DNA of 64,000 nucleotides from assembly GCA_045837725.1 (NCBI GenBank), contig JBEWZL010000217.1, positions 1 to 64,000 of the forward strand, in the 5' to 3' direction. Positions 3,222 through 60,288 of this stretch are shown one piece after another. A model generated the notes under the pieces. The model was not told the DNA's origin, did not search any database, and saw only the letters and a list, made by a program, of their open reading frames with translations. The DNA comes from Vermamoeba vermiformis (lineage: Eukaryota). Each line of letters starts with the position of its first letter. The first letter of the stretch is position 1. The position numbers were made by a program, and so were the translations under genes.

Positions 3222-3361
3222 TTTAAAAACGGTAATTAATCTCGGCGCGAAGATTTTAACTTAAATTTAATTTGACAACCCTAAATTTTAGACTAAATTT
3301 AATATTTTTGTACGTTTCCGTAAATCGAGAGTAATAGTCAATGTTCTCTTTCGATTGTAAA

Positions 3362-9000: not shown

Positions 9001-10751
9001 CTCGGCAGGGAGTTCTACATGCAATTAGTATCGCGCCATCCGATCAGCTCGATTTCCTTACCATTTCCGCTGAGCAAATCGAGGGCAGCCTGAGCTTCAC
9101 GAATTATTTCTTTGACAGCAACGTAATCAGCGTCATCAGACTCGCCACTAGGAGCCAATGCAGAGTAACGTTCGATCATCAATTGCAAAACATTAGTGAT
9201 GTTATCAATATGGTTAGCATTGGCTTTGCTATCAGCTTTATCAATGACTTTGGCACGCAAACCAGCTAAAAAGTGATGATATTAGCAAGATGAAAGCAAA
9301 AAAGGGCAAAAAATTTTGTCGACACCGGCAGGATTCGAACCTGCGCGGGCAGAGCCCAGAGGATTTCTAGTCCGCCGCCTTAACCACTCGGCCACGGTGT
9401 CTTGTTGTTCGCGGTCTTCGCCTTTTTTGGTACCCGTGCCTTAACAACGAGAAATTGACTTACCGTTGCTCATCAAGTTGCGATAGGCCATGGCTACGGG
9501 CAACATAAGGAAGGATCCATCGTTCTCGCTATCTGAACAAGATTGTTAGATCCTTTGCATAACTAGTTAACGTCGTACCTCCGTCAGGCATGTTTTCATT
9601 AGCAGCGCCGTTTGCCCAATCAAACACGGAGAGTTGGTCGATGATAGCATCCACATTGCTTCCAGGTTCGTCTGCAGACATATTAGCGCTTATAACTTCT
9701 AGCAACAATGCTTACAATAAGGAAGCAAGTTGGCAATGGCAATTGACGTGCGTCTTTGTGCTGACATGAAATCGTTGTAGCCCGTGCCATCATCCTCGTT
9801 GATCATCGTGTTCAAGCGTTCGTAGGCCTTGATCAAGTGCTTGACAGCGCCCTTCGAAGCAACAAGCTTCTTGGCAGTATCATCTCCTATAACAGCATTA
9901 ATGTTAGCCTCCGCAGAATCTTCAGAGATTGCTACGTACTGCTCAAAGAAATGTTCTGCAACAAGGTTGAAGCCTCCATCAACAATGCGTTCTCACTATT
10001 CGCGACGAACGATACAACAGTGGCAGGAGTTGCAGCTTCAACCAGCTCTTTTGCTCCACCTTAAAGAACGAAATTAAATTTTGAATTTTTGGATGCGGGA
10101 AATCATACCGGCAATTGCGATATTAGCAAAGGCATTGATGAGCTCTTGTTTGAGCTCGGAGTTCTGAGAGAGGTCTTGTGCAGCGCCAGATCGTCTATTG
10201 TCCTCTTGAGGGACGCAGTTCACGAGAGCCTTCAGTACATCCGCGTTCTTCCAAACTTGCTCGGCCAGTTTGTCTGAGCTATGTTAGCCAATAAAAAATC
10301 GATAGTATATTACTTGCCATTAAGCGCCAAGGTACCGACGAGAGCAATAGAGCCGAGCTGGTTGACCTTGAACAAAGGCAATATTGCATCCCATCCCACG
10401 CTTTCGATCAAATTCGTATCTAATGTTAGATAAATTAATTAAATTTACAACAAATACTAAATAGCTGGAGGATACTGCTAATACTGCAGGCGAATATTTG
10501 ATTTTCTAAAATTATCAGATCTCGTTCTTACTGAAATTAGCGGCCAAAGAAAACAATAACCATGCAGATTGTGTTTGCACCAATTTATCGTTGAAGGAAA
10601 CCAATTTTTTCAAGGCAGGCAACGCATCCTTGCCAACGGTAATATTTCCTTCGTCATCTTGGTTCAGACTGTCTGCAATTTCTTTAGTCAACGCCTTGAC
10701 TTGATCGTTCTTGAATTTTGCGATATAATTAAGATGTTCTAATGTGGCCAT
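6080..10751 (-). CDS. Large multi-exon armadillo/HEAT-like helical protein with a central Pro/Ser/Lys-rich disordered region
   Basis: Chain of minus-strand exons with GT-AG introns; ARM-like helices (ALPALKKLV..AWLLFSLAAN, LVPILVAYL..AELIGLLA); about 430-aa Pro-rich exon near 7640-8930. Confidence 0.7.
9320..9401 (-). tRNA. tRNA-Ser (anticodon AGA), intronic
   Basis: GACACCG TGGCCGAGTGGTTAAGGC GCGGA CTAGAAA TCCTC, long variable arm, GCAGGTTCGAATCCTGC CGGTGTC G; followed by a T-run terminator. Confidence 0.95.
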
Positions 10752-14701: not shown

Positions 14702-16575
14702 ATGGAAGAGGTTCGTACCACTCCGACGAAGAGAAAGTTAGATCAACTACTAGAAGCCGACACAAATCCGCTGAATAAAAAATTCAAAATTGATAAAAAT
14801 AGTGATTACAAGGTATGATAAATATAGATTGTTCAAACATCGCTCCGGCTAATATATAAATTCTTGGACAGGAAGAATTGTCATTTTCAGATCTGCCGCC
14901 TGAAACACAATACCACATACTTTCCTTTATCACAAGTGATCATCATAGACGTGTCTATAGATTAGTTTCAAAAATTTGGAGCGAATTTATCAATTACAGC
15001 GAGTTTAAAATTGGACTTTTGCTCGAAACTGAATCCGACGAATTTATTCGATATTTCAGTCAGTATGAGAAGCCAATTGGACTCAAATTTATGAAGACAG
15101 CGCATTTTATCACTTCCGCGTACCAAAAACCATTTTCCAATCCAAATTTAATCCGAGAAGATCAACTTTTGCGCGCGATCGAGAATCTGACTCAACTTAC
15201 CTCTTTGGATCTACACCTTGACGCATTTAAAGTTCCAAAACAATTAACAAATCTTCAACATCTCTCAATATTATACAGCATGGAGACTAAAGAAGATTCA
15301 GAGTCGCTTTTGTTTAGTCTGCCACATCTGACTTCGCTCTCAGTCCCAACTTTCCACCTCGGAACGAAATTTCCTCCCAAATTAGAAAAACTCAGTTGTG
15401 ATATGATAGAATTTCAAGCAGAGAGAACATTAGAACAAAATACAAGATTGACATCACTTCAGGGAATTTTTGACAAAACTTTAATTCGAGCACTTCCAAA
15501 TCTACGACAACTAGACATCAAATCATCGTACATAATATTAAACAAAGATACACCAAATTTAATTCCTTATTTAGAAGACCTTTGCACAAGTACATTTCAG
15601 CCAGAATGGGAATTCAAACATCTCACACAACTTGATATTAAAGCTATTGGCAGTCCACCACCAGTAAAATTGACAAACAAATTGGCAAAATTGAAGGTAC
15701 TAAAGTGCCATGAACTAGATCTGGAAGATTGTGATATGAATATTATGAAATCATTGGAATCATGTGTTATTAGAGATGATGACTGTAATATGAAAGTTTT
15801 GCCAAAACTAAATTCTGAGAAAATTACTCAACTAACAATTAAAGCCACAGAAGATAATTTTGTTGATTTTGCCAAGTTTACAAACTTGGTGAGTTTAAAG
15901 ATGACTTTGCCTGGAAAAAGTGGACCACATCCAGTGCCACTAACATCATTAACAAAATTGATACTGTATTATAACACATATCCAACAACATGGATGAATG
16001 GACTTCAAAATTTGCAAGATTTAAGTATTGCACCGATAGTAAATGCTAGGAATTTCAATGAGCTGCTTGATTTCGAAGAATTACAAAAATTGACAGTGTT
16101 GCGAATGAGAGGCAGTTATGATCGAATTTACGTCAAAAATTTAACCAGCTTGATCCAATTAGAGATAGAAAGTGGTCCTTATCAAAAAAAACCACCAACA
16201 CTTGATATTTATGGCTTATCAACATTAACAAATTTGACGCGCTTGGCTTTTATAAGCGGATCATCGTACAAAGCTCTGAAAAATTGGACAGATCTGGCCA
16301 GTTTGACGAAATTACGCGATCTGTATCTCGGTGCCGAACAAGAAAGAGGCGACGGAACTAATTTGGCACTACTTACAAATTTAACTCGTTTAGATTATTC
16401 TACGAGTGATGTACATTCGCTTGAATGTTTGACAAAACTTAGTCGATTGCAAATATTAAGAGTTCAAGGTGACGAAGCAAAATATATTCGACAGAATATT
16501 TTCCCTGAACTACCGTTTTGTTACGATTGCGTGGTTTTTCCGGATTATAAAAAGGAACGTGATCCAATAAAGTAA
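14702..16575 (+). CDS. F-box + leucine-rich repeat protein
   Basis: Short first exon, intron 14813-14871; F-box FSDLPPETQYHILSF...LVSKIW; many LxxLxL repeats. Confidence 0.88.
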
Positions 16576-16934: not shown

Positions 16935-19900
16935 TTAAGCTGTATCTTTAGCCTTGTAGAGCGGGTTAGCAGCGTCAGAGTAAGCAGCCTGGTACATCGG
17001 GTTAGTGGCACCAGAGGTCATACTGTCGTTCAAGTTCTCGAAGAAGTCGTCAACGGCAGCAGCCTTCTTCTTCATTCTCCAGATCACAATGCCGGCGGCA
17101 GCAGCTGCAGCGGCGGCGGAGACAGAGACGGCAATAGTAAGCGTGTTGTCGGTACCAGTAGTGGTGGTCAAACCAGTGTCAACGGAGTACAAAATGCGAG
17201 CGACAACAACGTCCTTGAGCGCAGTGTTGTTCCAATCAGTGTTGCCCAAGTCATCGACAGTGATGGTCAAAGTAGTTTGAGTGGTAATGTTGCTTGAGAA
17301 GTAGAGGTTGGCCAAGTACACATTGAGATCAGTTTGTTTGGCCTTGCAAGTCAAGTTGTTGGCCTCAATAGTGCAAGGAACGTTGTTGAGCGAGCTGCCA
17401 AAGGAGAAGGCACCAGCATCCTTCTCGGCAAGGATGGTCAAGAGGATCTGCTTCTTGCCAGCGTCAATGTCACTAACGTTGAAAGCACTCAAAGCAGTGC
17501 GTGAGGCGCCGTTGGTGTCAGTGTTGACAGTCAAGTCGAGGGTCGTGTAGCCAATGACAGGAGCGTCGTTGACGGGTCTGACACGAATGATGGAGCGAGC
17601 AACGTTGGAGTCAGCACCGGCGTCATCTTGAAGGGTCACGGTGAAACCGGCAAAGTTTCTGTCGTCGTAGGCATTGGCGTCAGGAACAAAGAGCACTCTC
17701 CAAGTACCGTTGCCGAATTGGCTGGTCAAAGTGGCAGGGATGGTCAATTCTTCACCTTGCTTGCAGTAAGCGCCGTCAGTAACGTCGCAGTTGTAGAGCT
17801 TAGCGTTGGAAGGAACTTGGCTGCTCAAAATAGCGACGAGCTTGGAGATGTCAGAATCGATATCGGTGCCGTTCCATTCAAGCACAAGAGTGGTGTCTTC
17901 GAACATGACAACACGCTCAGGCAAGACGTTGTAGAGAGGAGTGAGGACAGGAGGATCGTTGACAGGAGTGACGTCAATGGTGATGGTGTAAGTGCCGCTA
18001 AGCAAGCCATCAGAGTCGCGTAATTGGAAGGCGAAGCTGGCGTAATTGTTGCCGTTCTCGTTGGCAGCGGGCAAGAACATGAGCTGTCGTTGAGTGCCTG
18101 TCAAAGTGTCACCAACATTAACAGCGGTCTCAACGCAAGAGTTGGTCTCAGTGGCAGTGCAAATGTACAGCGAGCCACGAGCAACAGTCTTAGTGATGAC
18201 GATGGAAGTCTCGCCAGTGGAGTCAATGTCGGTGATTTGAGAGCCCAAGTTGATGTTGAGGATGGTGTCTTCAGGGATGGTCAAAGTAGTGGCACCATTG
18301 TAAGTCGAAGGATCGTTAACAGGCGTCACGAAAACAAGACCGTCGTAGACGTCGCTGTAAGCACCGTCACTGTCGAGGATCTGGAAAGTGAAGGTAGCCA
18401 AAGGAAGACCGTTGGCGCTGTTGGCGTTGGCAGGAGGCTTGTAGAAGAGAGTCTTGTTGTTGTTGGGCAAGAATTGACCGACTTGGACTTCTTGAGTGAG
18501 AGCAGCGTCGTAGTAGAAAGTACCGACAGAGCTCGAGCCAATCGAGGTAATCTTGACGCTGAGGTCGCTATAGAGTGATTCCAAATCAATAGCGGTCAAG
18601 GTGATAGTAGCAACGGTGTCTTCATCGATAGTTGTCACGGACTTCTGGCTGACAGGGGGAGTATTGGAGAAGATAATGTAGATGTCAACAGTGTAGTTCG
18701 AAGGGGAGTCGAGTTGACCGTCATTCAACTTGAAGTTGAACGAAACGAAGGGCACGTTAGGATTGACGGCAAGACCGCGGAGATCGGGAGGAGTCCAAGT
18801 CAAGACGATTGACGAGGGGTTAGTGCCAGCGTTGTAAGGAGTGGTGGTGATTTGACTTTCGGATTGAGTCAAAGTACCGACGTCAGGAACGCTCAAAAGA
18901 ATGAGCTTGATGGCGGAGGGAGCAGTATCAACGTCATTGGCAACCCAATCAGTAATGTCAACCGAGTCGATTCTGGTGGTCGAAACCTTGCGGCTTTGAG
19001 AAGTAGGAGGGTCGTTGACAGGCGTGACGGTGATGGTACCAGTGGAGGTTGAGATCAAACCAGCAGGGTCCTTGACGTACCAGTTGAAGTTGTCTTGGCC
19101 GTTGAAGTTAGCGGCAGGAACGTAACGAGTGTTGAAGTTGTTGACAGAGAGGGCTTGGCCTTGAGTGACAGCGGTCCAAGTAGTTCCATCAGTCGTGGTT
19201 TGCAATTGACCGTTGCTCGGCAAAGAGGTGACATAGACAGTCAACTCAGTGTTCAAGTTGTCAACATCGCTCACGTAAGTGCTCCAAAGGAAGGTCTTGG
19301 CGGTGTCTTCCGCAGTAGTGAGAGTGATGGGCGTGGCAACAGGAGCGTCGTTAATGGGGAGAACGTTGAAAGTTACGGTCTTCGGGTCAGAGTTAGCATT
19401 GGCAGCACCGCTATTGTCACGGATAAGGAAATTGAAAGTAGTGTAAGGTGAGCCGTTGTCGTTGGTGTCAGGAGTGAAGCGCAATTGCCACGAGGCATCA
19501 GTGCTGTAAGGGAACTCGTCGTTGAGAGCCACTTGAGTGTCATCACCAGCAGGACGAATGAGCTTGCCCTTGGCGGGGAGTGACTTAATGACAAGTGTGA
19601 AAGTGTCACCGACATCAACATCAGTCACGGCGAATTGAGTGAGAGTAGCAGTAGTATCTTCATCGATAGTCACGCTAAAGCTGTTGGTGATGGGCTGATC
19701 GTTCACAGGAGTGACGGTAATGTTGACAAATTGCACGGCAGAAACACCGTTGAGAGTGTCAACAAAGTAGAAGTAGAACGAATCAGGACCGTTGTAGTTC
19801 TCGTTGGGACGGTAGTTCACCAAGTAGTAAGTGGTGTTCGTGGTCGTCTGACGAATAGCGCTTGGCAAGGCAGTGTTGATAGTTGTGTAGTCAACGCCGT

Positions 19901-22900
19901 TAGCGACGATAGTACCGTGTTGAGGAAGAGTGGCAATGTAACCAGTCAATGTGGTGCTTTGACCGGCATCAGGGTCATTGCCTTCAATTCTGAAGTTGTT
20001 GTAGGTGGTGTCTTCAGGAGTGACGATAGAACCAGGGGTCAAGACAACGGGAACCTTGTTGGCACTGACACGAAGGTAGACAGTGACAATATTGGAGGTA
20101 GCACTAGCAGCGTCAGTGACTTGGAAGCTAACAATGCCGTTCAAGTTGTCAGGGGCGGTGGAGCTTGGAGTCCAGGCAATGTTCAACTGCTTCAAAGTAG
20201 CGTCGTTGCTGGCGTACGTGGCAATAGTAGTGGTCGCCGAGGGGCTAATGGTAGTGCCAGAGACAACGTTGACAGTACCGTAAGAGGCAGTGACGTTCAA
20301 GCTGAAAGCCTTGGCAGTCAAAGTGTCACCAATGTCAACGTCACGAATGTACAGAGGGAAAGTAGCTGTAGCCTGTCTGTCCGAGATAACAATAGTGGCG
20401 GTGGTCGTGAGCGTAGGAGGGTCGTTGACAGGAGTCACGATAACGGTGACGGTGTAAGTGGTAGCAGATCTGAGGGCACCGTCATAAACATCGTAAGTGA
20501 AGACGTAGTTTCCGTTCTGATCAGCCGCAGGAGTGAAGTAGACGCTTTGTTGGGTTAATTGCGTGGCAGAAGTCAATGAAGATGAGCTAGCGGAGGTCTG
20601 CTTGAGTGAACCAACGCTGGAGTCACCGAGGCTGCGCACAGTTACGATGAGCGAAGAGTTGGCATTGTCAACGTCCCAGATGCTACCCACGAAGCTGATC
20701 GAGAGAGGAGTGTCTTCAGCAGTAGTGACAGTGAAGTCAGAGCCGACAGGAGCGTCGTTGACAGGCAAGACGTTGATGGTACCAGTGTACACAGCAGAGT
20801 CATTTTTGCCGTCGTTGAACTTGAACTTGAAGGTGGTGAAAGGAGAACCGTTTTGGTCAGCGGGAGGAGTGAATAACAGTTTGCCAGAGGGGACGGCAGC
20901 GGGCAATGAGCCGAGTGCAGAGCCGTCAGCCTGGGTGAGAGTTCCCTTGCCAACGGAAGTAGTGACGTACAAAGTCAATGCATCACCCTCAACGTCAGAT
21001 CCGGTGATTTGATCGATGACCAAAGGAGTGTCTTCGTTGGTAGTCACGGTGATATCGCTTGAAGTGGGAGGATCGTTGACAGGCAAGACATAGATGTACA
21101 CGGTAACAGTGGCAGAAGTTGCACTAGCAGAGTCAATAGCGAAGTAAGTGAACGAGGTGATGCCGTTCCAGTCAGCAGGAGGTGTGTAGCGCACCAAGTT
21201 AAGAGGAATGTTGGTGTTACCACTTGACACGGTTGAAGTGTAGGTCTGACCATAAGTGAGAGTTCCCTTCGAGGGCAAGGTTACGATGGTAACAGTAGGA
21301 GTGGTGCCGTCAACGTCATTAATGAAGTTAACGAAGTTAATCGTCTTCTTGTTCAAGTCGGTCTCGTCTTCGTTAATAGTAATGTTGAAGGATTGAGCGG
21401 TAGGAGGATCATTGACAGGACGAACAGTCAAAGAAACAGATCCAGTGGTGTTCTCGCAACCATCGGTGACGAGCAAGTTAAGAACAATGTCTCCGTTGAA
21501 GTTGGCATAAGGATTCAAGGTGAAGGTAGCAGAGGGGTCGTACCAAGTATTGGCTGCGACGTTGGATCCGGCAAGTTGAATAGTTCCAGAGGTCGAAGAA
21601 GGCAAGCTAGGGAACAAGAACTTCATCTTGTTTGATTGAGCATCGCTGAAGACAGAGCTCAAAGAGAAAGTCAGCGAGGAATCTTCGTCACCGTAGAAAG
21701 TGGTGGTCGAAATGGTGGGTGCCAAGTTAACGACCATCTTGACATTGACGACGTTGTAACCCCAGATGACGTAGCTCAAAGTGCTGGGAGAAACGTAGTT
21801 CGCAATACCGCCTGCAGGCCAGCCGAGAGTCAAGTTGACTTGAGTATAGGCGCTGACAGCAGGAGTGATGCTAGTTGGCAAACTAACAACGAATTGATTG
21901 GAAAGCGTGTTCAAAGCAGTGACAGCTGAGTTGCTAGCAGCCCACAAGATCGAGTTGACGGCTTGGATCGAGAAGGTGGGGTAGACATGAGAGTACGAGT
22001 TGTAGAAGGGTAATGACAGAGAGGCGTAAGAGCTCGATACAGCTGAACCAGCAATGAACAAAGGCACGACGTTGGCGCTGGCAGAAGCTGACGCAAGAGC
22101 GTCAAGACCAGTGCTGGCGGGAGGTGCCTTGGTCACGACAACGACAACAGAAAGTCCACCAGCGTTAGTAAGACTGCGCCAGCCCATACCACTGGTAGTG
22201 ATGAGCGAAGCAACGCTGCTGTAGACGTTCGAAGTAGCTGAAGTGAAAGTGGTGCCCAACGCCACGGACTTGAAGGCCGAGATCTGACTCGACACTGCCG
22301 AGCTCAATGTAGAGACGTCGGTGCTTGATTGACGAAGGATAGCATAACCGAGTTGCATGCTTCCAACAGGGAAGTTACTTTGAATGTTGGTAGTAAAAGT
22401 TGTGAATTGAGTCCTGCGGGTAAATTATTAGTATGAGACTAAAAATCGGTTAATTAAAATTAAACTCACTTGAAATTATCCCATTCAGATGAAGATACTC
22501 CATTGAAGTCAGCGACGAACAAGATATCAAGAGGGCGCTTGCTGTTAGCCCAAGTGAAGATGTTTACGGGCAAAGTGATCTGAGGGTTCGCGTTAGATGG
22601 GACGACGTAAGCGGTCCAAGTAGTCGGATCAACAGACTTGTTGACGGGTGAGGAGGTAGGGTCACGAGTGATAGTGGCAGAACCAATGTTAGGATCACAG
22701 AAGTTATTCTCCAAGTTTGTGCATCCGTTGCTTGTGACATAGATACTTCTTAATAAAATACGGTAGCTGCAGTCAGCACCAACGCATTGAGAGTCCGAAG
22801 AGAAGGTAGTAACCTTGCCGCCCGAGCAAGAGTTACCGTTAGGGAGGATGCACTTGTCACCAGCTGTCAACAAGTAGGAGTTGGATGTGGTTCCGGTCCA

Positions 22901-26622: not shown

Positions 26623-29600
26623 ATGTCAAGATCTCTTAGCCATTTTTTTGGCGAGAACGTTTTGCTCGGATCTCGCACCAGAAAACCTGTAAAACAATTT
26701 GAAATTGCAGAAGAGCCTAAGAAAACCACAAAGAAGTACGAGATATTTTATTTAAAATTTTCTTCGAACCGCATCTCACAAAATTTATTATTTATTTAGT
26801 AATACAAACGCCAAGAAGAAAAATGGAGGAAATAAAGAAAATAGTAACCCAAATTCAGAAGATGACTCGTATTACAGCGACGACGAAGAGTCTTATGAGG
26901 AGTCAGTAGCAAAGAAGAGCGGCGGAAGATCAGATGGGCCGAAAAGAGTGCCCAAAAAATCAATGAGATATGTTCCTGATAGTGAAGACGATGAAAGTGA
27001 TGGAATGGACTCGATAGAGGTAAATTAATTGCGTGATTTATTTTACGAGAAGTCATCTGATCAAATTAAATTTGCAGTCGGAAGAGCCAGAACAGTCCGG
27101 ATCTGGCGAAAATGGAGAAGGCGAAGAAGAGTCCGAGGAAGAGACCGTTAAAATCGATGCTATCCTCGGTTACAAGCCAAGCAAGGTATCGATTTGTTGA
27201 TTTCCTTTTAAGGCAAAATTTCAAAGATCTGACGCGGAATATAGGACGGTAAACCAGCCGACGACCAATTCTTGATCAAATTCCAAGGCGAATCATATTT
27301 ACACGTCAAATGGCTTACTACCGCCGAAGTGGAAGAATATCCAGCTGGAAAACAACGAATCAAGCGTTACTTAGCGAAACGCAAACAAATGGAAGAGAAC
27401 GGAGAACTCGATGAAGATGGTACGTTATAAGCGTAATTAAATACCAAGCATTGCTAATATTTTTTGTTCAGAGGAATACTTCGATCCGAACTTCGCCATT
27501 ATCGAAAGAGTTATTGCAATGGATTATTTTGACGATGACGAAGAAGAATCTGGCGAAGAAAAAGAAAATGGCGAAGAAAAAGTCGACAAAATGGATATTA
27601 CTAGCGAGGACTCCGGACCAACTAAAGAAAAAGACGACAAAAAACAAAAGGAAAAAGTTCCGCAGAAGAAAGGCGGTAAAAAGAAAGCTGCAGAGGCTGA
27701 AAAAGAAGACAGCGAGGATAAATCAGGCCCGTTAGAGCTATTATCTGAAGAATCTCAAGAAAGCGATAAGCCTGCAGGAAAGAAACATTATTTCGTTAAA
27801 TTCAAGGGTCTTCAATACGACGAAGCCACATGGGAAGACGCCGAAATGGTTGAACGCGAGTACCCCGAATTGTAAGTATTGATATAATTGATAGTATATT
27901 GTAGCTTACCAATAATATCTGATAGGGTTGAAGAGTTCAATAAGCGCATTAAGTTGCCGACAAAAGAATTGCAACAAAATTCAAAGAAAGGAGCTGTTCG
28001 TAGAAACACGAAGGACTTTAAAGAAGATATGGAGCAAGTCAAGTTCGAAAACGACATTACTTTGCGCGAGTATCAACTTGAAGGCTTGCGTTGGCTCGTT
28101 TGGTAAGTACTTTCAATTTTTGGTATTTTTTTGCTCGCGGATCTGACGTTCGTTTTGTAGGAACTGGTGCTGCGGTCGTAGTGGCATTTTAGCCGATGAA
28201 ATGGGTCTCGGCAAGACCGTTCAAGCCCTGAGCATTTTGTGGTGGTTGAGAATCACTAAAAAGATGCGTGGACCTTTCTTAAGTAAGTGTAACACCAGAT
28301 CTGCATGGAATTTTTTTGCAAATTTTAATCTTTATTTGTAGTTATTTGCCCCTTGGCGACTATTGACCATTGGTTGCATCACGTTAACTCTTTGACGTCG
28401 CTCAATGCTATTGTTTGGCACGGAACTCAAACGTCACGTGACTTGATCCACGACAATGAATTCTATTTTGACGGCCTGAGCAAGACTATGGCTAAGACTA
28501 ACAACGTCTATAAATTCGAGGTCATCTTGACTACCTTCGAAGTATTGTTGCAAGACGTTGAATTGCTCAGCAAGCCTTTCTGGAAGTACTTGGTAATTGA
28601 CGAGGCTCACAGATTGAAAGTACGTAAAAAACAAATATCAAAATTTTATTGTGCTTTATCTAACTATTTTAGAACAAACAATCGAGATTGTTCGAGATTT
28701 TGCAAAACTTCCGCAGCGAGCATCGTTTGTTGCTGACCGGCACGCCTTTGCAAAATAACATTGACGAGCTTTGGACTATGTTGAATTTTATTGACCCCGA
28801 TGAGTTTTCGTAAGTATTAATACGGACTCGTTTCTTACAGCCCTCTTCCAGATCCACTAACAAAACTTGTCTTAGGTCTTTCCAAGACTTTTCTAAAAAG
28901 TACGGAGCTCTTCAAACCAGTAAACAAGTCCAAAAATTGCAAAAAGAATTATCGCCTTATTTGCTGCGTCGTATGAAGAACGATGTCGAGAAGTCTATTC
29001 CGAGCAAAGAAGAAACAATCGTCGATGTCGAGTTGACTTACACTCAAAAGACGTTCTATCGTGCAGTCCTCGAAAAGAACAGAAATTTCTTGTCAATGGG
29101 CGCTTCGAGCAAATCAAACGTGCCTAGTCTCTCGAACATTATGATGGAGCTTCGTAAAGTTTGCAATCATCCTTACTTGGTAGCAGCAGCTGAAGGTACG
29201 TCACTTTGTGGTATTAAATCTATTACACTAGTTAATCTTTACGTAGAAACTATTACTCGTGGTGTCAAGTCCGACAAGGAGCACAAAGAATGGTTGGTGA
29301 AATCATCGGCCAAGCTCGTGTTCTTGGACAAATTGTTGCCAAAGTTGCAAGCTGAGGGTCACAAAGTTCTAATCTTCAGTCAAATGGTGCGCATGCTCGA
29401 CTTGCTGGAAGATTATATGAACTACAGAACGTTTAAATTCGAAAGAATCGATGGTTCTATGGACAGACAAAGTCGTGCTCAAAGTCTGACTCGCTTCAAG
29501 ACTATGCCTGACAGGCAAGTTAATTTTACTGAGCGGATCTGATCCAACCCGAGATTAACTTCTTTTTCTTTAGATTTGTTATGCTTTTATCTACAAAGGC

Positions 29601-48999: not shown

Positions 49000-51296
49000 G
49001 GTATTTATAAAATAATTCGAACGCAAATGCAAACTCTATCCATTATGGATAGTAATACACAACCAACAGGACTGCAAGGATGTCATATTAAGTGGTGTAT
49101 TTGTAAGCTCTTCTGAGAACAACAAGATCCGACCAGTCACAGATCTGACGTTAAAAAATAAAATTAGAAATATAATTAACCTAATTAGTTTTGGATCCAG
49201 TACCTGTAGGCATAAAATTTAAATACGCGATCCGATGTCTCTTCGAATGGTTCGTGATATCTTCTGCTATAATGTCTCTGATATAAGACCTTTTCTTTTT
49301 CAGCCTGACAAATCACGTGATTGATTTTTGTGCCGGGTCTGTGCCACGTGCCCCAATAATTCGTCATTTCTTCTGCCATATATACCATCTTATAGTGCGT
49401 AAACGTTTTAGATGAGCATTTGATAATAAACCTGTTATTTTCCATAAAGTCTAAGTTTCCAACGGCATTTAATTGTGAAAATTTGTCCGATCCGGCCGGA
49501 TTCCTAATTAGGAAATTGATGAGTATTATGGCGTATCGGGTATACGAATTTATTACCAATCGACAACATTTTCTGCTAAATTGTATTTTTTCCCTGGCTG
49601 AATAACGTCAATAATTGCGTTGACCGATTGAAGTAATTTTGGATCGGATCTAATTGCTCGTAGTTCATTTTCAGAAAATTGTGCCCCATTCATTAATAAC
49701 CACTCGATTAATATAGTGCTATCATTCTTATTATAATCGAAGCAAGCAAGGCCAAGTATCGTCTCGATCCACGAATATTTTTCACGCCTAAAAAAAGGCG
49801 ACAACTTTCCATTAATATCTAAATAACATATTTAACTATTAATATCAAATTATAATCACATCAATTCTTTTCTTACCAATTTTTTTCTCAAATAGCAAAT
49901 CGTAAAAATTAGAACGCAAATGCAAATTCATCTTGCCGCACGCTACAGCCGGAAAATATCCCGCATTTGGATCTAACAGCACCACGCGCGAAATTCTTTC
50001 AAAAGATTCATAGTCGCAATTATAACATGCTAGATCTAATGGCGTAATCTATAAAACAAAAAAATAAATTTCGGGCTTGGGTACTGGATCCAGTTCGAAC
50101 TTACACAGAATGACTTGATGACATCGATTTGGTCTATATTATTATCAACGTGCATGGTGCTCGTTAAATCAAACGGAAATTTGTGATAATGCTCCAATAG
50201 ACCAAAAATAATTTTGTACGGCTCATTTGCCTACAAAATTTTAACATTAGAGAAGCCTATTTTACAAATAAATTTGATAGTAGATAGACTTTGAGGCACT
50301 TACCAAATAAGGAAAGTGGTTTTTTCCGCCAACGACATCAGGTGTCAATAACAATCGTATGACAAGTGGACTATATTTAGCCATAAAGTTCATGAATACG
50401 GGGAATAAATGCATTGATATGAATCTGTTGTATTGATGTGGAACCGTTAATAATTCTTGGAAAGCGAGTAATATGTGCCAAATAAAGCTTTGAAACTTGG
50501 TCTCGCTCATTATAGCCCATCTGTCGTTCGGATCCTTAAACTCCTCTTCAACGACCTATAATTAAATTATTATTAGAGGGTCTATATTTAATTAATTTTA
50601 ATTTACCTGAATAAAATATTGCAGGATCTCGTCGGCATCAAATTGAATAATTGAAGCCAATTCGTGCCTAGCCTTTCGTCTGCCAAAATCATCGTTCAAA
50701 AAATTCTCAAGCACACAAAAACGAAGTAGTTTCGTAGTATCGACTTTGAAATTGAAATAAGAAGCCATTAAATTTGGATCGTTGAAGCTGTAAGCCCTCT
50801 AAACCAGTTTTTAAGCTTTGATAGCATTATTTTCGCTAACATACGAGTTTCAGAGTTTGAGGATACCATTTTAATAATTCTTCTACGACTTTGTGGGTTG
50901 GCAGAGACCGGTCAGCTTTGTATCTGAAAAAAAAATTAATTTCGCTTGTTTGACGGAGAATGAATCCTTCACGCAATAATAACTAGTAGTGCATTAGTCA
51001 AATTAGTCAAATTATTTAAATTAATTTTCTTACACTGCGAACGTATTTTGAAATGCTCTGTTTTCTGCTCTTTGATCAGCTTGTCTGTACAAATGTTTGC
51101 ATACGGCTCGTATATTGCAAAAAATATTTAAAGTACAATAGCTGAATATGATTGAATTCACTTCGTCTGGAAGAGTCAACCAAAGGGCATCCGTTTGGTC
51201 TTCATGGTTGTTGTAATTAATCCGATTCCATCTCTGTATAGTAGGACTAAATGGTTTAAATTTGATATAATTGAACTCTGTGTTTGTATTTAACAT
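49000..51296 (-). CDS. F-box protein with ankyrin-like segments (multi-exon; 3' end approximate)
   Basis: F-box LWLTLPDEVNSIIFSY...RAVCKHL; ankyrin-like ITPLDLAC and ETILGLAC...IEWLLMNGA. Confidence 0.6.
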
Positions 51297-51584
51297 TTTA
51301 GCGATTATCAGGAGAACAAAATCATTTTTGCCTTGACAAGATCGGGTTCGGAATCAAACTGAAGACCCGGTAGACTATAATTGACGAATATCTCGCCGTT
51401 AGTTGAATTTCAGTACCGTTAGAGTCGATCATCTTATCCGTAGTGATTTGGGACGGACGGGTGGATGCACCGCCTCGAATTTGCTTTGGCCATCATTTAA
51501 CCTTAGTAATATAATTACCTTCGTTTTTGTATGCAATTTATTTATAATCAGCTACAATAATAAAAAATTGTGGAGAGCATTGTG

Positions 51585-53940
51585 TTACGCTGAAATTTGT
51601 TTGCCTGCTTCTGACTCAAAAATACCAACGGTAAAACGTGAAGCAACTTTGGCGGCAACAATGTACTGGCCTGACGAATTGTGACGCACTGCGCGGCCAT
51701 CGGAATGAAGGCTAAAGACGTCGAATATTTCCTCGTTCACGAGCAAATGATACGGGGATTCCTCCAGATCGCGAGTCTTGAATGCTTTTTTCAGCTTTCT
51801 AAGCGCGTCTTGTGGAGCCATTCGTGAAGGATAAATTAATCTCGTAGATTGAGATTTCGGAGATTTGACGTCACAGAGCAGCAAGGCGGCGAGGCATTTG
51901 TCGTTATGATTGCGCAAAGAGTTGAACTTCAGGGCTTCATGGAGCTCTTTGTGCAAATATTCCTCGGCTTCCGTTACGTTGTCCTCGAGCAGGGCAATGG
52001 TTCCAAGACAATAGAACGGCTTGAGATAGGTTTTGACGTATGGAGATCCAGCTGTCGATTCAATTTTCTTGCGTGCATCGTCAAATATTCCGCACTTCAT
52101 TTGCGCCACGCCGTAGTAATAGTTGATGACGTCATTGTAGTCCGCGGAGAATTCTTTCAGGTAAGTGCTTGCCAATTTCTCAAAGATGTCAAGAGCCTCT
52201 TGAAATTCGCTCTTTTCCAAGCACGCCAATCCATCGTAGAACAGCGAGACCAGCGTGAAAAAGTTGTTCGTGCCGAGTTTGTCCGTGCATTCTTTGTGAA
52301 CAGTTTGGTGATGTGGAAAGTCGTGAATCACTTTCAATATTCCGCCGTTGACGTCTCCTTCGGTGGCCAAAAGTCCAGCCAATCGTCGCACGACCATTGA
52401 ATTTGCGTTGTTGTCGAAGATTCCAATGTTTTCCAGTGCGGTTCTACGAAGTTCTACCAATATTGCTGCAGGCAACTGACGATCGCAAAAGTCCAAAAGA
52501 TCGTGCAAAATGAATAACTTTGACTCGTTGTAGCGATAATTCGTCGTTAAAACGTCCAACCAAGCACTCATCGTTCGCTCAAATTCTTCTGCTGTCATTG
52601 ACTCTAGCAGGTACTTCGCCACTGCATCGTGCTCGATCTCAATGCATTCGTTATTAGGACTCATCTTCAATAATGTCAAGTTGAGTGCCGGTGAAATTAA
52701 CTCTTTGAAGTCGATCGCCTTGAAGTCGCTGGAGATTGGCACGAATAAACTTGAGTTGTAGAATAATGACGCCGTGATCATCTTCTTGCTGACTCCGCCA
52801 GTCAGCGACAACATCCGCAAGATCAGTTGTTGCTTGTAATCGAGCTTGTTGATCATGTTGACAAAATGACACGTGTCAAACTCGAGACCTTCACGCTGCA
52901 CGTTGAGATATTTCTTTTTGAATTCTTCGGGCTTCAAGTTGAACATCTTCATGAACAGCGGCACGGATGAAGTCAACAGAGGATATCCGTGAAATTTCGC
53001 AATGATGGGTTTGATCTCGCCGAGGTTTTTCGAAGACTTTTCGAGCGATAGAACTTCCATAAAGTAGTCTACCACGTCATCGTCAGATTGATTCAGCATG
53101 AAATGTGAAGCCGCAAAGCTGTTCGGCCAAATGAGCTGGTTCAGTGTGGTGGTGTAAAGCACGTGACCGTCAAATTCTGATGGAATGAACTCGCGGTAAA
53201 GAGACTCGACGAGTTCTGGTCCGTGACAGTTATCAAAAACAACGATCACGTTACTCAATCTAGATATTCTTTCACGGATCAAGTCGTAGTCTGTTCGCAC
53301 CGAGAGTTGCTCGTGCATTGCTGGTACATCGAGTAACTCCGCTACTTTCATCACGCTGTCGTTCATCGATTTTTCCTTGCAATCGAGCCACAAAATATAC
53401 TCGTAGTCTGAACTTCGGACAAATTTCTGAAAGAAATCTTAGTTCCAAATATAGTAACATTTTTCAAAATGATATTACCTCAGCCAATAGTGACTTTCCT
53501 ATGCCTTTTTGACCGTGAATAGCTACGACGTGTGGCGCTGACTGAAGCAAGTTTTTGACGGTCATGATTTTGTCAGAGATCTTGATCAGGGTTCTGTTTG
53601 TTTCAGGAACGAATGGATTGATACGCGACGTGAAGCCTCGTTCTATTCTGTCATGAAGCCATCGAGAAACATCTTGACGATCGGTCTGATCCAGGGAGTA
53701 GATAAACTGATCCAGCTTGACTTTGCGACGTGCTAATTCCTCCACCATTAATTCTGAAGGTTCTTTATCATAGGCAATTTGTTCAGGAGACAGATGATTA
53801 ACAAGCCAATCTCTTGTGATCGGATCCACGCTGTCAGGTTCACATAGGTGCCCAATATCAGGCCATCTTGGTTCGATACAAATCCTTGCAGCAAGTTGAA
53901 TCCTTGTTAATTTCGGAAGAGACGCGAGTGTAAGGTCCAT
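51585..53940 (-). CDS. STAND/NB-ARC NTPase with N-terminal death-fold-like domain and C-terminal TPR-like repeats (NLR-like)
   Basis: Walker A VAIHGQKGIGKSLLA; intron 53427-53478; YILWLDC; Walker B VIVVFDNC; GHVLYTT; GYPL (GxP); TPR-like helices. Confidence 0.85.
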
Positions 53941-55203
53941 ATTAAATTTCTAAAGCTGGGAGGTAATTAGTATTCACGTAGTCGATCTGGTAACGCGTAC
54001 CTCAGTAAGATCTGCTGTTGTATTTCTTCGTTCTCTTTATAACATTAGGACGAATCTTCTTACCAAAAATAGTGCCACATCACGATTGATATCCAAAATG
54101 CTTGCTTTATTAGTAGAGAGGTCTCGCGATTACGGTATGGTTATCAAAGAAAATTCGTAATAAATTAATTTAACTACCTTATCGGCTAGTACAGTCGGAT
54201 TTAGTTATAATGGGTGCAATGTTTAAAAAAAAAATGCTCTGCACCACGACGCAGGCGTCCTTATGAAGGGATACTTCTGTTGTGGACAGAAGACCTATCA
54301 TACTTTATTGTCCGTGGGGTATGGACCTGGTCGATAAGCTTCATAGACCACGGATCAATGTTGAAATCGGATCCGCACACCCATTAAGGGCAAATTGAAG
54401 CGTACAATGCCCTCTATAATTTATTTCTATTCATCACTCAAGCACCTGAGAAAGGCCACTCCTCACGTTTAATTTAGTGGCGGTAGAAGAGATTTTAAAT
54501 ATATTTATGTATATGTCGAGACCAGTGCAGTGAACCTATGCTCTTGCCCAGTAATTTTAAATAATTAGAGAGAACGCCGCAATGACTTTCGCGCGTCAAT
54601 CGGTCAAACTAATTCTCTATTTGCCTTCAAAGGCGATCTTTTAATACGGAAAATTGTGCTTCGTATTCATAAATTTGTCCGACTGACAATGTGCTCGTCA
54701 TTTTCGCAGGCAGTTTTGATTCGCAAGACTTATTGCAATGAGAAGTTTTCATTTAAACGAAAAATTCTCGAAAGAGCGATTGAAAACGAAATATTTAGAG
54801 ATTTCAAAAGCTTGAAAAGATTTCAATTTTGCCCATTATAATTAAATCCGACTGTAATAATATTTTTAACTCAATCTAAATAGGTTTGTTGGGTTTGGTT
54901 AAATGGATGCGGATTAGCAAATGAAATTATTTTCAGGGTTGAATAATTCTTCCAATTTATCGCATAAGATATCATATTATAATATTATATAATTAGCTGA
55001 TTTAAATTATAAAGGAAATAATTGAGCACAAACGTGCAAACCGAGTCCTTGATCTGATCAAGCTAGCACTGGCATCCCATCCATCTTTGCTTGATTAAAG
55101 GTGGTGATCGCATTGCACGAACAAAATAATTATGATTTAGTGCGCGAAACCAAAACAGTTTAATTTAGCAACTTTATTTCCGAAAATGCATCCACTCGCT
55201 AAT

Positions 55204-57601
55204 TTATTCCCAAGGTGAAGTGTCTGTGAAGGCATAAGGTCTCATACGTTTGCCCATCTTTTTACCCCAATAGGCCTTTTTGTCGGATGTTGCCACCAGC
55301 GCCGTGCACCTGCCCATGTCCGTGTACTCTTGCAGCGTCTTCACATCCCGAACTAAAAATACCGTTAACGAGTCGCCTCTATTGTAAAACCAAACATACC
55401 TCTATAAACAGTCTTTTGACACTTATCGCAGAATCGCTCGGTTTTGTTGTTCGGATCTTCTTTCAAATTATCCCAACTCATCGGACACTCAAACTCGAAA
55501 CCACAGTTTTCTGTCGAAACTTATTAGGGCTTGTTAAATTAGAAGTTCTGCTTACCAATTGGTCCCTGATATGATTTAACTTCAGTTGCACGTCGTTTGA
55601 AGAACTTGAACCACGATTTGATCTTCAAGTCAGGATTCTGATGCTTGTGTGTTTGCAAGTACAACGTCTTCCACACTGGATTGCCCAAGTATGATTCAGC
55701 GAACTTCTTGCTCACCTACAGAGCAATCAATTATTGTGCAAGAAACACATATTCGTCAAACTTACTTTACGAAGTTCTTTGACTTGAGCGACTGAGATCA
55801 CTGAGAACCCTGCAATCAAGTTCATGATGTCACTGGGGACAGCAGAGATGTGGTTGTGTGGTACGTTGCGATAGTTTGGCAAAGTGTTCACATCGAATTT
55901 GAACGGACCAGTGAAGTTAATTGTGAACGAGACACGTGACTGTTTCGTGAACGATACTCCTGGGAAGCAATCCATGCCTTTGTGTACTGTGTCTTCAATG
56001 ATACCTAAAAACCCTTGCGCGTCAGGATCCAGAACTAATCGAATACTTAGATCAAAGTCGTACCAACGTATTGACCGTTCTTGGTGAAATAGACTTTGCG
56101 TTGATTGTAACTGTCGAACAATATTCCAACACCAATCGTGTCTCCTTTGCCAAATTTCATATCGAAGAAGCTTCTGATGGATTGCGCCGAATTGACGCTC
56201 GCCTGAACGAGTCAGTTAAGTACAAACTAGCAATATTTTTGCACTTACTGTTCCATTGCTGAAAACTCCAAAACTGTTCTGTTGATAGCCAAGCATCTCA
56301 TTTTGACCGAAGATCTGATTGCCAATTCCAACTCCAACAAGTGCGTCTTGTGCAACTTCATCGAATGTCACTTCCATGTACGCGTGACTTGCAGGTGTTT
56401 GTTCGATCGAGCTCAAGTCCCAACACTTGCTTGTCTTCACACTCATGTGTTCGGGACAAAGCTTGTCGGGGCCAAAGTTCAGCGAGTACTTCTGACCTTT
56501 GCATTCGAGCACGTGTGACAGATCCTTCAGCTCAAGATCAAGGTCCGAGGCCTTCTTTGACACGTCACTCTGAAGAACATTTCCTTTCAATGCACACTTG
56601 GGACACTCGTCGTAGTTGCCACACTCAACGCAATGGAAAACAACTGAATCACTCGCTGTTCCGCATTTATCGCACTAAAATCAGTTAATTTTATGGCAAT
56701 ATTGTATAACTGCATAGTTGTACCTCGAAGCGGCCACCGTATCCTTTTTCGACCCAAAAGCCAGTTGCTGACTCCAGTCGCAACAGTTGGTGCTCGTGAC
56801 TTGGGCTTTGAACCAATGAATCGGTTGTGCTCTCGAGCTTCGCGTGACAGCTGTTGCATTGAGCGTAGTTCGAGCAGAATTCGCAAACCCACGAGCGAAT
56901 GCGTTTAGGCTTTTCTTTTGCTGTTTTTGGTTCCAAAACATCTTCATCAGCGGACTCTTCGGAGTCAGAACTTACATCCGGCTCATCCGAGTCGTAATTG
57001 CTAGTATCTTCGAAGATCATTGTAGCTCTCGTGGGGCAACATACTTGGCATTTGTAAGTCTTGTTCGTTGAGGGTGTCAAAGGATGATTATGACGCAAAT
57101 TAATTCGTTTTTTTAGCGTGACGAAATTAAGAAGTTGAATCCAGCGTTCCGTATCCTTTCAAAAAAAGTTAGAAGCGTGTTAAAATAATCTAAAATTATA
57201 ATAGACCTACTTCTGGTTTTTTGCAAGCAAAACGGGGACCAGTTGAATATTCCGATTCTTCTTTGGAGTGGATCACGAAAACACCGTCGTACTTGCCATA
57301 TTTTTTTGGTGGGCCAATCTTTACAAATGGTGATAATGATATTTCTTTCGAAACACCCTGCCCGTAAGATTTTTAGCAACGGTCACAAAATTAAATAAAT
57401 TCATTTTTAGCAAATATTTATAGAAGAAGGGCAGTTAATGCTCACATGAATTTATTAAATATTTATCCATACCGATACTGTCAAATTTCCAGTGGAACTC
57501 AAACTGAGTTGCGCATCGACCCAAGTTCCGTCACGTTTCGAGTCATCTTTGTAATAGCGCACTTGCTGCTCGTGAATAGTCTTCACGGGTGAATTTCCCA
57601 T
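55204..57601 (-). CDS. PH-like + Cys-rich zinc finger + SPRY + F-box-like protein (copy A)
   Basis: MGNS start; CEFC..C..CH zinc motifs; SPRY motifs YMEVTF, VGVGIG, GDTIG, YFTKNG, FPGVS; VPSDIMNLIAGFS...LRKVSK. Confidence 0.7.
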
Positions 57602-57892
57602 CGCTTTGTGCTTTCGATATTAAATTTAAGTTAATTTTATTTTTACGCTTCATTTTATTTTTAGTCGTTCGGTAAATTACCTACGTTTTTAATGACAAGA
57701 GATTGACGTGTAATGACGAGCAGCCATTAGACTTAAAAAACTTCCTTAAAAGAATCGTGTGGCAGTGACTAACAAAACATATAAAGGGCCCGTCTACATG
57801 TATAAAACAAGCATTTTGTTCCGAACTAGTTATTAGCAAGCCCGAGCACTTTTACAGATCGTTGATGGGGTAACAAGTTATTTTTTTGTACT

Positions 57893-60288
57893 CTATTCCC
57901 AAGGTGATATGTAGTTGAATGCAGGAGGTCTAGCACGTCTTCCCATCTCCATATCATACATATCAATCTCATCTAATTTCTGCATCAGTGCCGTACACCT
58001 GCCCATGTCCGTGTAGTCTCGCAGCGTTTGTAAATCAGACACTAGTCATGGGTCAAAATTAGTTATTTCCTTTTACGGTATTTAAGCAGTACTGTAATAG
58101 CTAGACAACTTGGGCACGAAAACGTACCTCTATAAACAGTCTTTTGACATTTATCGCAGAATCGTTCGGTTTTGTTGTTCGGATCTTCTTTCAAATTATC
58201 CCAACTCATCGGACACTCAAACTCGAAACCACAGTTTTCTGTCGCAACTTATTAGCGCTTATTAGATTAGAAATTCTGCTTACCAATGGGTCCCTGATAT
58301 GATTTAACTTCAGTCGCACGTCGCTTGAAGAACTTGAACCACGATTTGATCTTCAAGTCAGGATTCTGATGCTTGTGCGTTTGCAAGTACAACGTCTTCC
58401 ACACGGGATTGCTCAAGTATGATTCGGCGAAATTCTTGCTCACCTGCGGAATTTAGCGGTCAATCGTTGTACAATCGTCAATGCATTTGACTTACACTAC
58501 GGAGTTCCTTTACTTGAGAGACTGAGATCACTGAGAACCCTGCAATCAAGTTCATGATATCGTTGGGAATAGCTGCCATCAACTCGCATTGGTAGTCGCG
58601 ATAGTTTGGCACAGTGTTCGCATCGAATTTGAACGGACCAGTGAAGTTGACTGTGAACGAAACACGCGACTGTTTCGTGAACGATACTCCTGGGAAGCAA
58701 TCCATGCCTTTGTGTACTGTGTCTTCGATAACCCCTAATATTACCAATGAGCTTGATTACGAGACAAAAACACCGTTGTTGTTTCGACGTACCAACGTAT
58801 TGACCATTCTTGGTGAAATAGACTTTGCGTTGATTGTAGCTGTCGAACAATATTCCAACTCCAATCGTGTCTCCTTTGCCAAATTTCATGTCAAAGAACT
58901 TCTTCGCTGATTTTGCTGAATTGACGCTTGCCTAAACATGGTGCATTAGTTCATTTCTTATTCGCTTGATGCAGTCTAGTAATAGCCAAGCACGTCTTAT
59001 TTTGGCACTTACCGTTCCATTGCTGAGAACTCCAAAACTGTTCTGTTGATAGCCAAGCATCTCATTTTGACCGAAGATCTGATTGCCAATGCCAACTCCA
59101 ACAAGTGCATCTTGTGCGACTTCATCGAATGTCACCTCCATGTACGCGTGACTCGCAGGTGTTTGTTCGATCGAGCTCAAGTCCCAGCACTTGCTTGTCT
59201 TCACACTCATGTGTTCGGGACAAAGCTTGTCGGGACTAATGTTCAGCGTGTACTTCTGACCTTTGCGTTCGAGCACGTGTGACAGATCTTTCAAGTCCAG
59301 TTCGAGGTCCGAGGCCCCCTTAGATACGCCATCTTTTAGATCGCTGTCTTTCAGTGCACATTTGGGACACTCGTCGTAGTTGCCACACTCAACGCAATGG
59401 AAAACAACTGAATCACTCGTTGTTCCGCATTTATCGCACTAAAATCAGTCAGTATAAATATGACGTAGGGGATTATCGCATGGCAGTACCTCGTAGCGAC
59501 CGCCATAGCCTTTTTCGACCCAAAAGCCAGTTGCTGACTCCAATCGCAACAGTTGGTGCTCGTGATTTGGGCTTTGTACCAATGGATTGGAAGCACTCTC
59601 GAGCTTTGCGTGACAGCCGCTGCATTGAGCGTAGTTCGGGCAGAATTCGCAAACCCACGTGGGTTTCGATCTAGGTTGCTTTTCAACGTCGTTAACCATT
59701 GCACATATGTTGCAGGGCTTGCACAATATTGATGGTGGCGTCAGAGGATGATTATGGCGCAATTGAAGGCACTTTTTGAGAGCAACGAAACTGAGAAGCT
59801 GAATCCAACGTTCGGCATCCTGCACAAAAAGATCAAAATTTAAAAGTTACCTCGAGAATTATTATAATATATTACCTCAGGTTTTTTGCAAGCAAAACGA
59901 GGGCCGGTGGAATACTCCGATTCGTAAGTGGTGTGAATAACGAAAACACCTTCGTACACGCCGTATTGTGGCGGGGTGATAGTTGTGAAAGGTGATAGTG
60001 TAATTTCTACTGGCTTCTTCAGCTCACGCGACTGAACGAAATAATATTAGATCGCACTTAAATTCGGAATTCAAAAATAAATTAATTTGCAAAATCTTCA
60101 AAAATTGTAATATCTCGATATTATAAGTACTCATGAATACTGCTCTCTAATGATCTTACCGAGACCGTCAAATTTCCAGCGGAACTCAAACTGAGTTGCG
60201 CATCGACCCAAGTTCCGTCACGTTTCGAGTCATCGTTATAATAGCGCACTTGCTGCTCGTGCAACTTTGTATTCGCTGAATTTCCCAT
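57893..60288 (-). CDS. PH-like + Cys-rich zinc finger + SPRY + F-box-like protein (copy B, tandem paralog)
   Basis: Exons closely match copy A; PH-type terminal helix DAERWIQLL. Confidence 0.7.

Follow-up and report, generated by a model that had tools for sequence, protein, structure and literature searches.

The DNA analysed here is a 64,000-nucleotide stretch of the Vermamoeba vermiformis genome (contig JBEWZL010000217.1, positions 1 to 64,000; hereafter the window), and the subject of this study is a gene on its minus strand that encodes a 767-amino-acid protein built around an NB-ARC nucleoside triphosphatase (NTPase) of the STAND class (signal transduction ATPases with numerous domains). 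Cell-death and innate-immune signalling in animals, plants, fungi and prokaryotes relies on STAND/NB-ARC proteins as its core switches. An initial annotation of the same DNA had proposed a tripartite protein at this place, with a death-fold-like N-terminus, an NB-ARC domain and tetratricopeptide repeats (TPR), and the coordinates it gave match our gene model exactly (53940-51585). The gene has two coding exons separated by one 52-nt GT..AG intron. The exons were drawn from two open frames on the minus strand in the open reading frame (ORF) list of the window, 53464-53949 (161 aa) and 51585-53438 (617 aa). Exon 1 opens with the ATG at 53940, and no other ATG lies between it and an in-frame stop 12 nt upstream. 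The GT at 53478 directly follows the codon for Glu154 and the AG ends at 53427, giving an intron in phase 0.

The single coding intron, already called in the initial annotation, is confirmed by comparison with relatives and by an assembled contig that skips it. The junction sequence GKSLLAE/KFVRSS is uninterrupted in the full-length relatives P0003 (766 aa), P0004 (765 aa) and P0006 (767 aa), which lie on intron-less contigs of about 2.4 kb. A contig of run X3 joins position 53426 to 53479, skipping exactly 52 nt with CT..AC ends on the plus strand; on the shorter side it has 30 letters, where the bridging rule applied demands 31. Within 51000-54400, the X3 contigs span 51550-54023 and nothing else. 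This coverage and the intron-less contigs of the relatives were taken as possible signs of expression. The related genomic locus L001 carries a 61-nt GT..AG intron after the same codon, and the 198-aa database protein P0008 is the exon before that L001 intron, read through into the intron. The gene is real and spliced, and belongs to a eukaryote whose introns are short. It is not a chance frame, given 767 open codons, five relatives at 72-85% identity (the only close ones in a collection of 5.8 billion clusters), and proportions of nonsynonymous and synonymous differences from L001 (pN and pS) of 0.167 and 0.721. Analyses of the full-length protein were run on the orthologue P0003, whose identity to each exon is given with the coordinates of the gene and its parts in Table 1.

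Table 1. Parts of the NB-ARC gene and their positions in the window. AF2, AlphaFold2; pLDDT, predicted local distance difference test; A3, an alignment of 38 rows that includes the family and remote NB-ARC relatives.
Feature	Position	Strand	Basis or remark
Coding exon 1, codons 1-154: N-terminal domain, linker, P-loop	53479..53940	-	Sequence; 83% identical to P0003 residues 1-154
Sole coding intron, 52 nt, GT..AG, phase 0	53427..53478	-	Sequence; orthologues; X3 contig; L001
Coding exon 2, codons 155-767 (613 codons; 53426-51588) and TAA stop (51587-51585)	51585..53426	-	85% identical to P0003
N-terminal all-helical domain, residues 1-110, fold unassigned	53611..53940	-	Two AF2 runs
NB-ARC module (NBD-HD1-WHD, that is nucleotide-binding, first helical and winged-helix domains, and the following helical domain), residues ~111-478	52455..53610, intron included	-	
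Walker A / P-loop, GQKGIGKS, residues 143-150	53491..53514	-	A3
Walker B, VIVVFDNC, residues 214-221	53226..53249	-	Asp almost invariant in A3
Sensor-1 (RNBS-B) position, VLYTTTL, residues 243-249; Thr in place of the usual Arg	53142..53162	-	A3
GxP (GLPL-type) motif, HGYPLL, residues 300-305	52974..52991	-	Pro almost invariant in A3
MHD-type motif, EIEHD, residues 417-421, winged-helix domain	52626..52640	-	His in 29 of 32 non-gap A3 rows
TPR-like helical solenoid, residues ~495-676 (~180 aa)	51861..52406	-	
C-terminal alpha/beta domain, residues ~677-767 (~90 aa)	51588..51860	-	AF2: 6 strands, 1-2 helices, pLDDT 62-82

At the centre of the protein lies an NTPase of the NB-ARC (AP-ATPase) class whose sensor-1 is atypical. 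All three full-length orthologues exceed the Pfam gathering score for NB-ARC (PF00931, 23.5 bits), with 28.2 bits for P0003, 24.5 for P0004 and 25.8 for P0006. NACHT stays under its cut-off of 26.7 bits in these orthologues (17.6-22.8 bits) and always ranks under NB-ARC, and Pfam finds no leucine-rich repeat (LRR) in any of the three, so that the protein is not an animal NOD-like receptor (NLR) in the strict NACHT-LRR sense. The NCBIfam model NF040586 (FxSxx_TPR) also matches residues 111-248 in the orthologues, at E 7e-13 to 3e-11. The match reaches 42.4-50.1 bits against a cut-off of 300 and covers only positions 1-136 of the 830 in the profile, which leaves the protein outside the TPR proteins of the FxSxx-COOH system. 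Filing it with a known defence family was likewise dropped, as PADLOC returned one weak match (PDC-S01, E 2.9e-4) in one of the three orthologues.

Structure prediction points to the same class. The AF2 model of P0003 has a mean pLDDT of 71.0, with values of 75-93 over most of residues 120-450 and one dip near 190-200. A Foldseek search with this model gave 153 rows at E ≤ 0.001, headed by 6mfv (a STAND-TPR protein, E 1.2e-10), Apaf-1, CED-4 and NRC2, and the structures most akin to the NTPase module are those of Apaf-1, CED-4 and Dark. A search of Protein Data Bank (PDB) sequences with exon 2 returned a single irrelevant match (E 0.051). Together with the NB-ARC matches among remote relatives described below, the Pfam, NCBIfam and Foldseek results agree with the STAND assignment of the initial annotation and speak against an NTPase of another class.

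The P-loop, Walker B, GxP and MHD-type His are all present, as had been reported of a complete set of STAND motifs, and the reading of sensor-1 as YTTT in place of the usual Arg-containing form is correct. Over the 38 rows of A3 the sensor-1 column holds Arg in 18, Gln in 7, Ser in 6, Thr in 2, Lys in 2, Pro and Asn in one each, and a gap in one. The window protein has Thr here and its five orthologue rows have Ser; the 30 remote rows divide into 18 with Arg and 12 with another residue (Gln in 6, Lys in 2, and Ser, Thr, Pro or Asn in the others). An Arg at sensor-1 (hhhTTR or TSR) is typical of the NB-ARC clade, although it is not universal among proteins matched by the Pfam model. Because 12 of 30 remote NB-ARC relatives also do without it, the missing Arg is treated here as a variant feature and not as a ground for excluding the family from the NB-ARC clade.

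The family is very narrow, judged by the sequence collections searched. When a family profile was compared with 1.84 billion representative proteins, 40 matched at E ≤ 0.001, and no more than three of them reached E ≤ 1e-10, namely the family itself, the fragment P0008 and a divergent relative, P0009. The other 37 align only over residues ~100-380, and the nearest sequence outside the family (E 1.2e-7) matches in the NTPase core alone. NB-ARC was detected in 34 of these 37: in 18 of the 21 with E ≤ 1e-5 and in all 16 of those at E ≤ 1e-3, of which two score slightly below the gathering threshold. Many of these remote relatives have TPR_10/TPR_12 tails, and their N-termini include TIR_2, SEFIR, HTH, HET, kinase and PNP_UDP domains. 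P0009 forms a sister pair with the full-length protein P0062 (929 aa; Pfam NB-ARC 44.3 bits), and apart from this pair nothing among the representative proteins matches beyond the NTPase core. P0062 aligns with P0003 over 118-513 only (E 1e-19, 22% identity). The N-terminus of P0062 and P0009, of ~165 aa, is helical-looking, unassigned and different from that of the window family, and their tail is longer.

A quick maximum-likelihood tree was built from 42 NBD regions. In it the family received a support of 99 in the Shimodaira-Hasegawa-like approximate likelihood ratio test (SH-aLRT), the sister pair 99, and the long-branched clade that joins them 96. This joint clade stands outside the other 34 sequences and branches within no group of them; these sequences have no taxon labels. 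The NB-ARC phylogeny that had been suggested at the outset, to tell a bacterial from a eukaryotic origin, sets the family and its sisters apart as a clade of their own and favours neither origin.

The C-terminal part of the protein consists of a helical arm and a further end domain. The TPR-like repeats of the initial annotation are present only as a predicted helical solenoid; no Pfam TPR model passes its cut-off there (TPR_12 18.7 bits against 30.1, TPR_2 17.2 against 27, TPR_1 17.0 against 27.8), and for this reason we name the arm TPR-like and not TPR. The predicted alpha/beta domain that follows was overlooked initially and extends the tripartite layout of helical N-terminus, NB-ARC and solenoid, which otherwise holds. 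It has no Pfam match, a search of PDB sequences with the C-terminal 96 aa gave one match at E 0.41, and the ESM Atlas offered no usable match (P0003 residues 670-766). Of the three domains for which a profile scan had been proposed, then, NB-ARC scores over its cut-off in the orthologues, TPR stays under its cut-offs and Death has no match.

Comparison with L001 indicates that the gene is under strong purifying selection. The ratio of nonsynonymous to synonymous substitution rates (dN/dS) is 0.078 overall, at a dS of ~2.4 that is saturated, and by part it is 0.12 for the N-terminus, 0.064 for NB-ARC and 0.078 for the helical arm. Amino acid identity to L001 is highest in the arm (80%) and lowest in the C-terminal domain (55%). 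This pattern of conservation fits a sensor of an invariant ligand. The gene has no paralogue within the 64-kb window and is apparently single copy there, and its upstream neighbour, a gene with ZZ and SPRY similarity described below, is also its upstream neighbour in L001, where one copy at 440-2901 matches in many separate blocks.

We favour, with somewhat better than even confidence, the reading that this spliced gene encodes an NB-ARC STAND NTPase, with a helical N-terminus, a TPR-like solenoid and an alpha/beta end, that works as a nucleotide switch. Its switching, ligand, oligomer and output are inferred by analogy with Apaf-1, plant NLRs and prokaryotic STAND-TPR proteins. On that model the resting state would be an ADP-bound, closed monomer shut by the C-terminal arm, and the trigger would be a ligand that docks on this arm. 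The strong conservation of the arm makes an invariant or endogenous ligand more probable than a fast-evolving pathogen protein. Ligand binding would lead to nucleotide exchange and oligomerisation, and the N-terminal domains clustered in this way would recruit or activate a partner.

Several observations weigh against this reading. High conservation, an apparent single copy in the window and kept synteny are unlike the typical expanded, diversifying families of immune receptors. In Walker B, the Asp is followed by Asn and the first acidic residue, a Glu, comes only at +5. A missing sensor-1 Arg and the lack of an acidic residue beside the Walker B Asp may mean that hydrolysis, or the sensing of gamma-phosphate, is atypical or lost. 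The two exon pieces of the window protein have no significant Pfam match of their own (NB-ARC 13.1 bits), and since the protein was scanned only as these pieces, the class assignment rests on orthologues that are 73-85% identical to it. That X3 is an RNA run is only a guess, and the same-species RNA runs X21-X23 gave 2, 0 and 0 reads, which says nothing either way on expression. Small word shares of the locus also occur in the metatranscriptome runs X15-X20 and were not used for habitat or taxon.

The nature of the N-terminus bears most directly on what such a switch might drive. A helical domain of about 100 residues had been predicted there, and both AF2 runs place helices at ~5/10-22, 29-32, 40-49, 52-57, 63-85 and 89-100, at low confidence (pLDDT 41.2 for the domain alone, from a 5-row alignment, and 35-61 within the full-length model). 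The initial annotation went on to call this domain death-fold-like, which the searches do not bear out. Pfam assigns no family to the domain, and no death-clan Pfam model (Death, CARD, DED or PYD) was found at E ≤ 10 in the exon pieces, at E ≤ 1 in the three orthologues or at E ≤ 0.001. A phmmer search of PDB with exon 1 gave 0 matches, the nine matches of the N-terminal profile A4 among PDB sequences include no death fold, and the ESM Atlas had no usable match for P0003 residues 1-125. A profile search found no homologue of the N-terminus outside the family among the 1.84 billion representative proteins, and a wide VIA-align search with the low-confidence model was uninformative.

A death fold is nevertheless hinted at by structure comparison. 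With the N-terminal model as query, Foldseek lists 31 rows at E ≤ 10, and 14 of them are death folds (2 PYD, 4 CARD and 8 death domains, DD). All of these rows are weak, with E 3.2-9.5, probability ≤ 0.13 and a root-mean-square deviation (rmsd) of 8.5-15.8 Å, from a query of pLDDT 41, and such a cluster in a predicted model is only a hint, a lead and not a test. In its full form, the proposal is that the N-terminal ~100 aa are a highly divergent DD, CARD, DED or PYD, and that the protein is a platform like the apoptosome or inflammasome, recruiting a death-fold partner homotypically. Size and helix count (6-7 helices in ~100 residues) fit this proposal, as do the likeness of the NTPase module to Apaf-1, CED-4 and Dark and the same architecture in invertebrates (PMC2246300, PMC6321704). 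Against it stand the poor quality of the Foldseek rows, the empty searches of Pfam, PDB sequences and the Atlas, and the count of Pfam death-fold domains among the remote NB-ARC relatives, 0 of 37. We regard it as a tentative possibility, rather short of even.

Other candidates for the N-terminus were set aside. The top match of A4 against PDB sequences was eIF2-alpha, over residues 56-105 (53626-53775, minus strand; E 0.1-0.2). It was judged to be chance because it is not significant, its rows belong to one family, and the query has a hydrophobic spacing of i/i+3/i+4 and is helical in both models, whereas the matched segment of eIF2-alpha, around the Ser51 loop, is beta. An XRE-type HTH, as in the remote relative P0021, found no backing, since hhalign of A4 with P0021 reached a probability of 0.2 and left the HTH itself unaligned. 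DUF6471 gave a weak match to residues 62-104, below its cut-off (E 0.001-0.068), that was treated as unexplained noise; the literature searched does not mention DUF6471.

Less probable, and in our judgement unlikely, is that the NTPase is degenerate or slow, binding nucleotide and hardly hydrolysing it, and that the protein serves as a constitutive scaffold or regulator with a housekeeping or developmental role, not as a triggered immune or cell-death switch. All six family rows have Ser or Thr at sensor-1, and the Walker B FDNC is followed by no acidic residue before the Glu noted above. Purifying selection is strong throughout, with the supposed sensor arm the best conserved part, and both the kept synteny and the absence of a paralogue in the window would suit such a role. 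The retained P-loop, Walker B Asp, GxP and MHD-type His, on the other hand, argue for nucleotide binding and a closed/open switch, and the 12 of 30 remote relatives without the Arg indicate that its loss need not mean inactivity.

We also consider, as a rather improbable extension of the switch reading, a lineage-restricted, conserved and apparently single-copy platform resembling the apoptosome. Its N-terminus would be a diverged death fold or a new adaptor fold, an endogenous ligand would be read by the TPR-like arm and the alpha/beta cap, and the platform would need no sensor-1 Arg.

The gene just upstream of the NB-ARC gene is split into several exons and encodes a ZZ finger (24.1 bits, cut-off 21.4) together with a SPRY piece that stays below threshold; it is tandemly duplicated in the window (55207-57613 and 57896-60288, minus strand). 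Downstream is an F-box-like ORF at 51030-51353 (minus strand; PF12937, 24.8 bits, cut-off 24.3), for which no counterpart was found in L001. Further away, an unbroken frame of 1829 codons at 16935-22424 (minus strand) has bacterial cadherin-like Cadherin_4 (E 7.6e-72), Big_9, Cadherin_5 and SibA-like Ig domains. Its G+C content is 0.47-0.50, against 0.36-0.44 around it, with a strong GC skew. In a eukaryotic window whose genes bear introns, it has the look of a gene that was acquired horizontally or is foreign in some other way. The window also holds a 5S rRNA gene at 13715-13833 (plus strand, 98.6 bits), a tRNA-Ser(AGA) gene at 9320-9401 (minus strand), a fragment of a DDE_3 (Tc1/mariner-type) transposase at 2409-3260 (minus strand, E 1.8e-25), a 571-codon frame at 14860-16575 (plus strand) whose LRR_14 match of 39.3 bits lies just under the cut-off of 40, and an exon of a SNF2-family helicase at 28814-29542 (plus strand).

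That the NB-ARC gene was itself acquired horizontally, as a bacterial NB-ARC-TPR gene domesticated with the gain of one intron and new end domains, is very unlikely: the best curated match is a bacterial family model (FxSxx_TPR, E ~1e-13), many remote matches are bacterial-type (TIR_2, SEFIR or HTH with NB-ARC and TPR_10/12), the gene has one intron only against the many separate blocks of the ZZ/SPRY neighbour, and the cadherin-like frame of raised G+C lies in the same window, but the nearest outside sequence matches only in the NTPase core, the FxSxx_TPR score is far under its cut-off, fungal-type architectures (HET, PNP_UDP) occur among the matches as well, the family and sister clade is nested in none of the other tree sequences, and neither tree nor profile matches carry taxon names by which a donor could be assigned.

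As it stands, the gene adds to a known class a member that is well supported and ordinary. Even if its N-terminus were a death fold, the architecture would be one already known, and what distinguishes the protein is the narrow family, the two orphan end domains and the sensor-1 without Arg. If the N-terminus is indeed a cryptic death fold or a new adaptor, the family would document a further case of effector and adaptor exchange on the NB-ARC scaffolds of little-studied eukaryotes, and would offer mechanistic work a sensor-1 that lacks Arg by nature.

Compared with Apaf-1, CED-4 and Dark, the window family differs in having no detected CARD, an arm that is TPR-like and not WD40, and no Arg at sensor-1. 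In Apaf-1 the sensor-1 residue is Arg265, and the structural matches include an entry titled 'R265S mutant'. Pfam finds neither CARD nor WD40 in any of the 37 matches outside the family, and the window family is therefore no Apaf-1 orthologue by sequence.

The initial annotation had described a death fold joined to NB-ARC as the layout of Apaf-1, CED-4 and animal NLRs. It is theirs, but it is not peculiar to them. Amphioxus, sea urchin and Nematostella are reported to have death-fold/NB-ARC proteins with TPR instead of WD40 (PMC2246300), and in placozoans 39 NB-ARC genes are reported that combine WD40 or TPR at the tail with a CARD or death-like effector domain (PMC6321704). The tripartite logic is common to these invertebrate proteins and the window protein. 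They differ in that the N-terminus of the latter matches no death-clan model and that an extra alpha/beta domain lies at its end, and no member of these families was recovered as a sequence relative of the window family.

Comparable arrangements are known outside animals. Fungal NLRs combine NB-ARC with TPR by preference, and roughly half of their N-termini lack annotation (PMC4986451); bacteria have death-like domains in systems with AP-ATPase-TPR proteins (PMC8195603). The archaeal STAND-TPR protein 6mfv shows 12-14% identity and an rmsd of 9.7 Å, and has no equivalent of the window N-terminal or alpha/beta domain. Bacterial and fungal NB-ARC-TPR STAND proteins differ from the window family in their N-termini, which are TIR_2, SEFIR, HET, HTH, kinase or PNP_UDP domains, and in the DUF7779 that many of them carry and that has no match in the window family. 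Their tails are canonical TPR_10/TPR_12 arrays scoring hundreds of bits, whereas the window tail stays under every TPR cut-off. They are nonetheless the closest sequence relatives of the window NTPase core, and they share with the window family the hhhhFDN form of Walker B and the H-x-L-x-Q-type motif region of the winged-helix domain.

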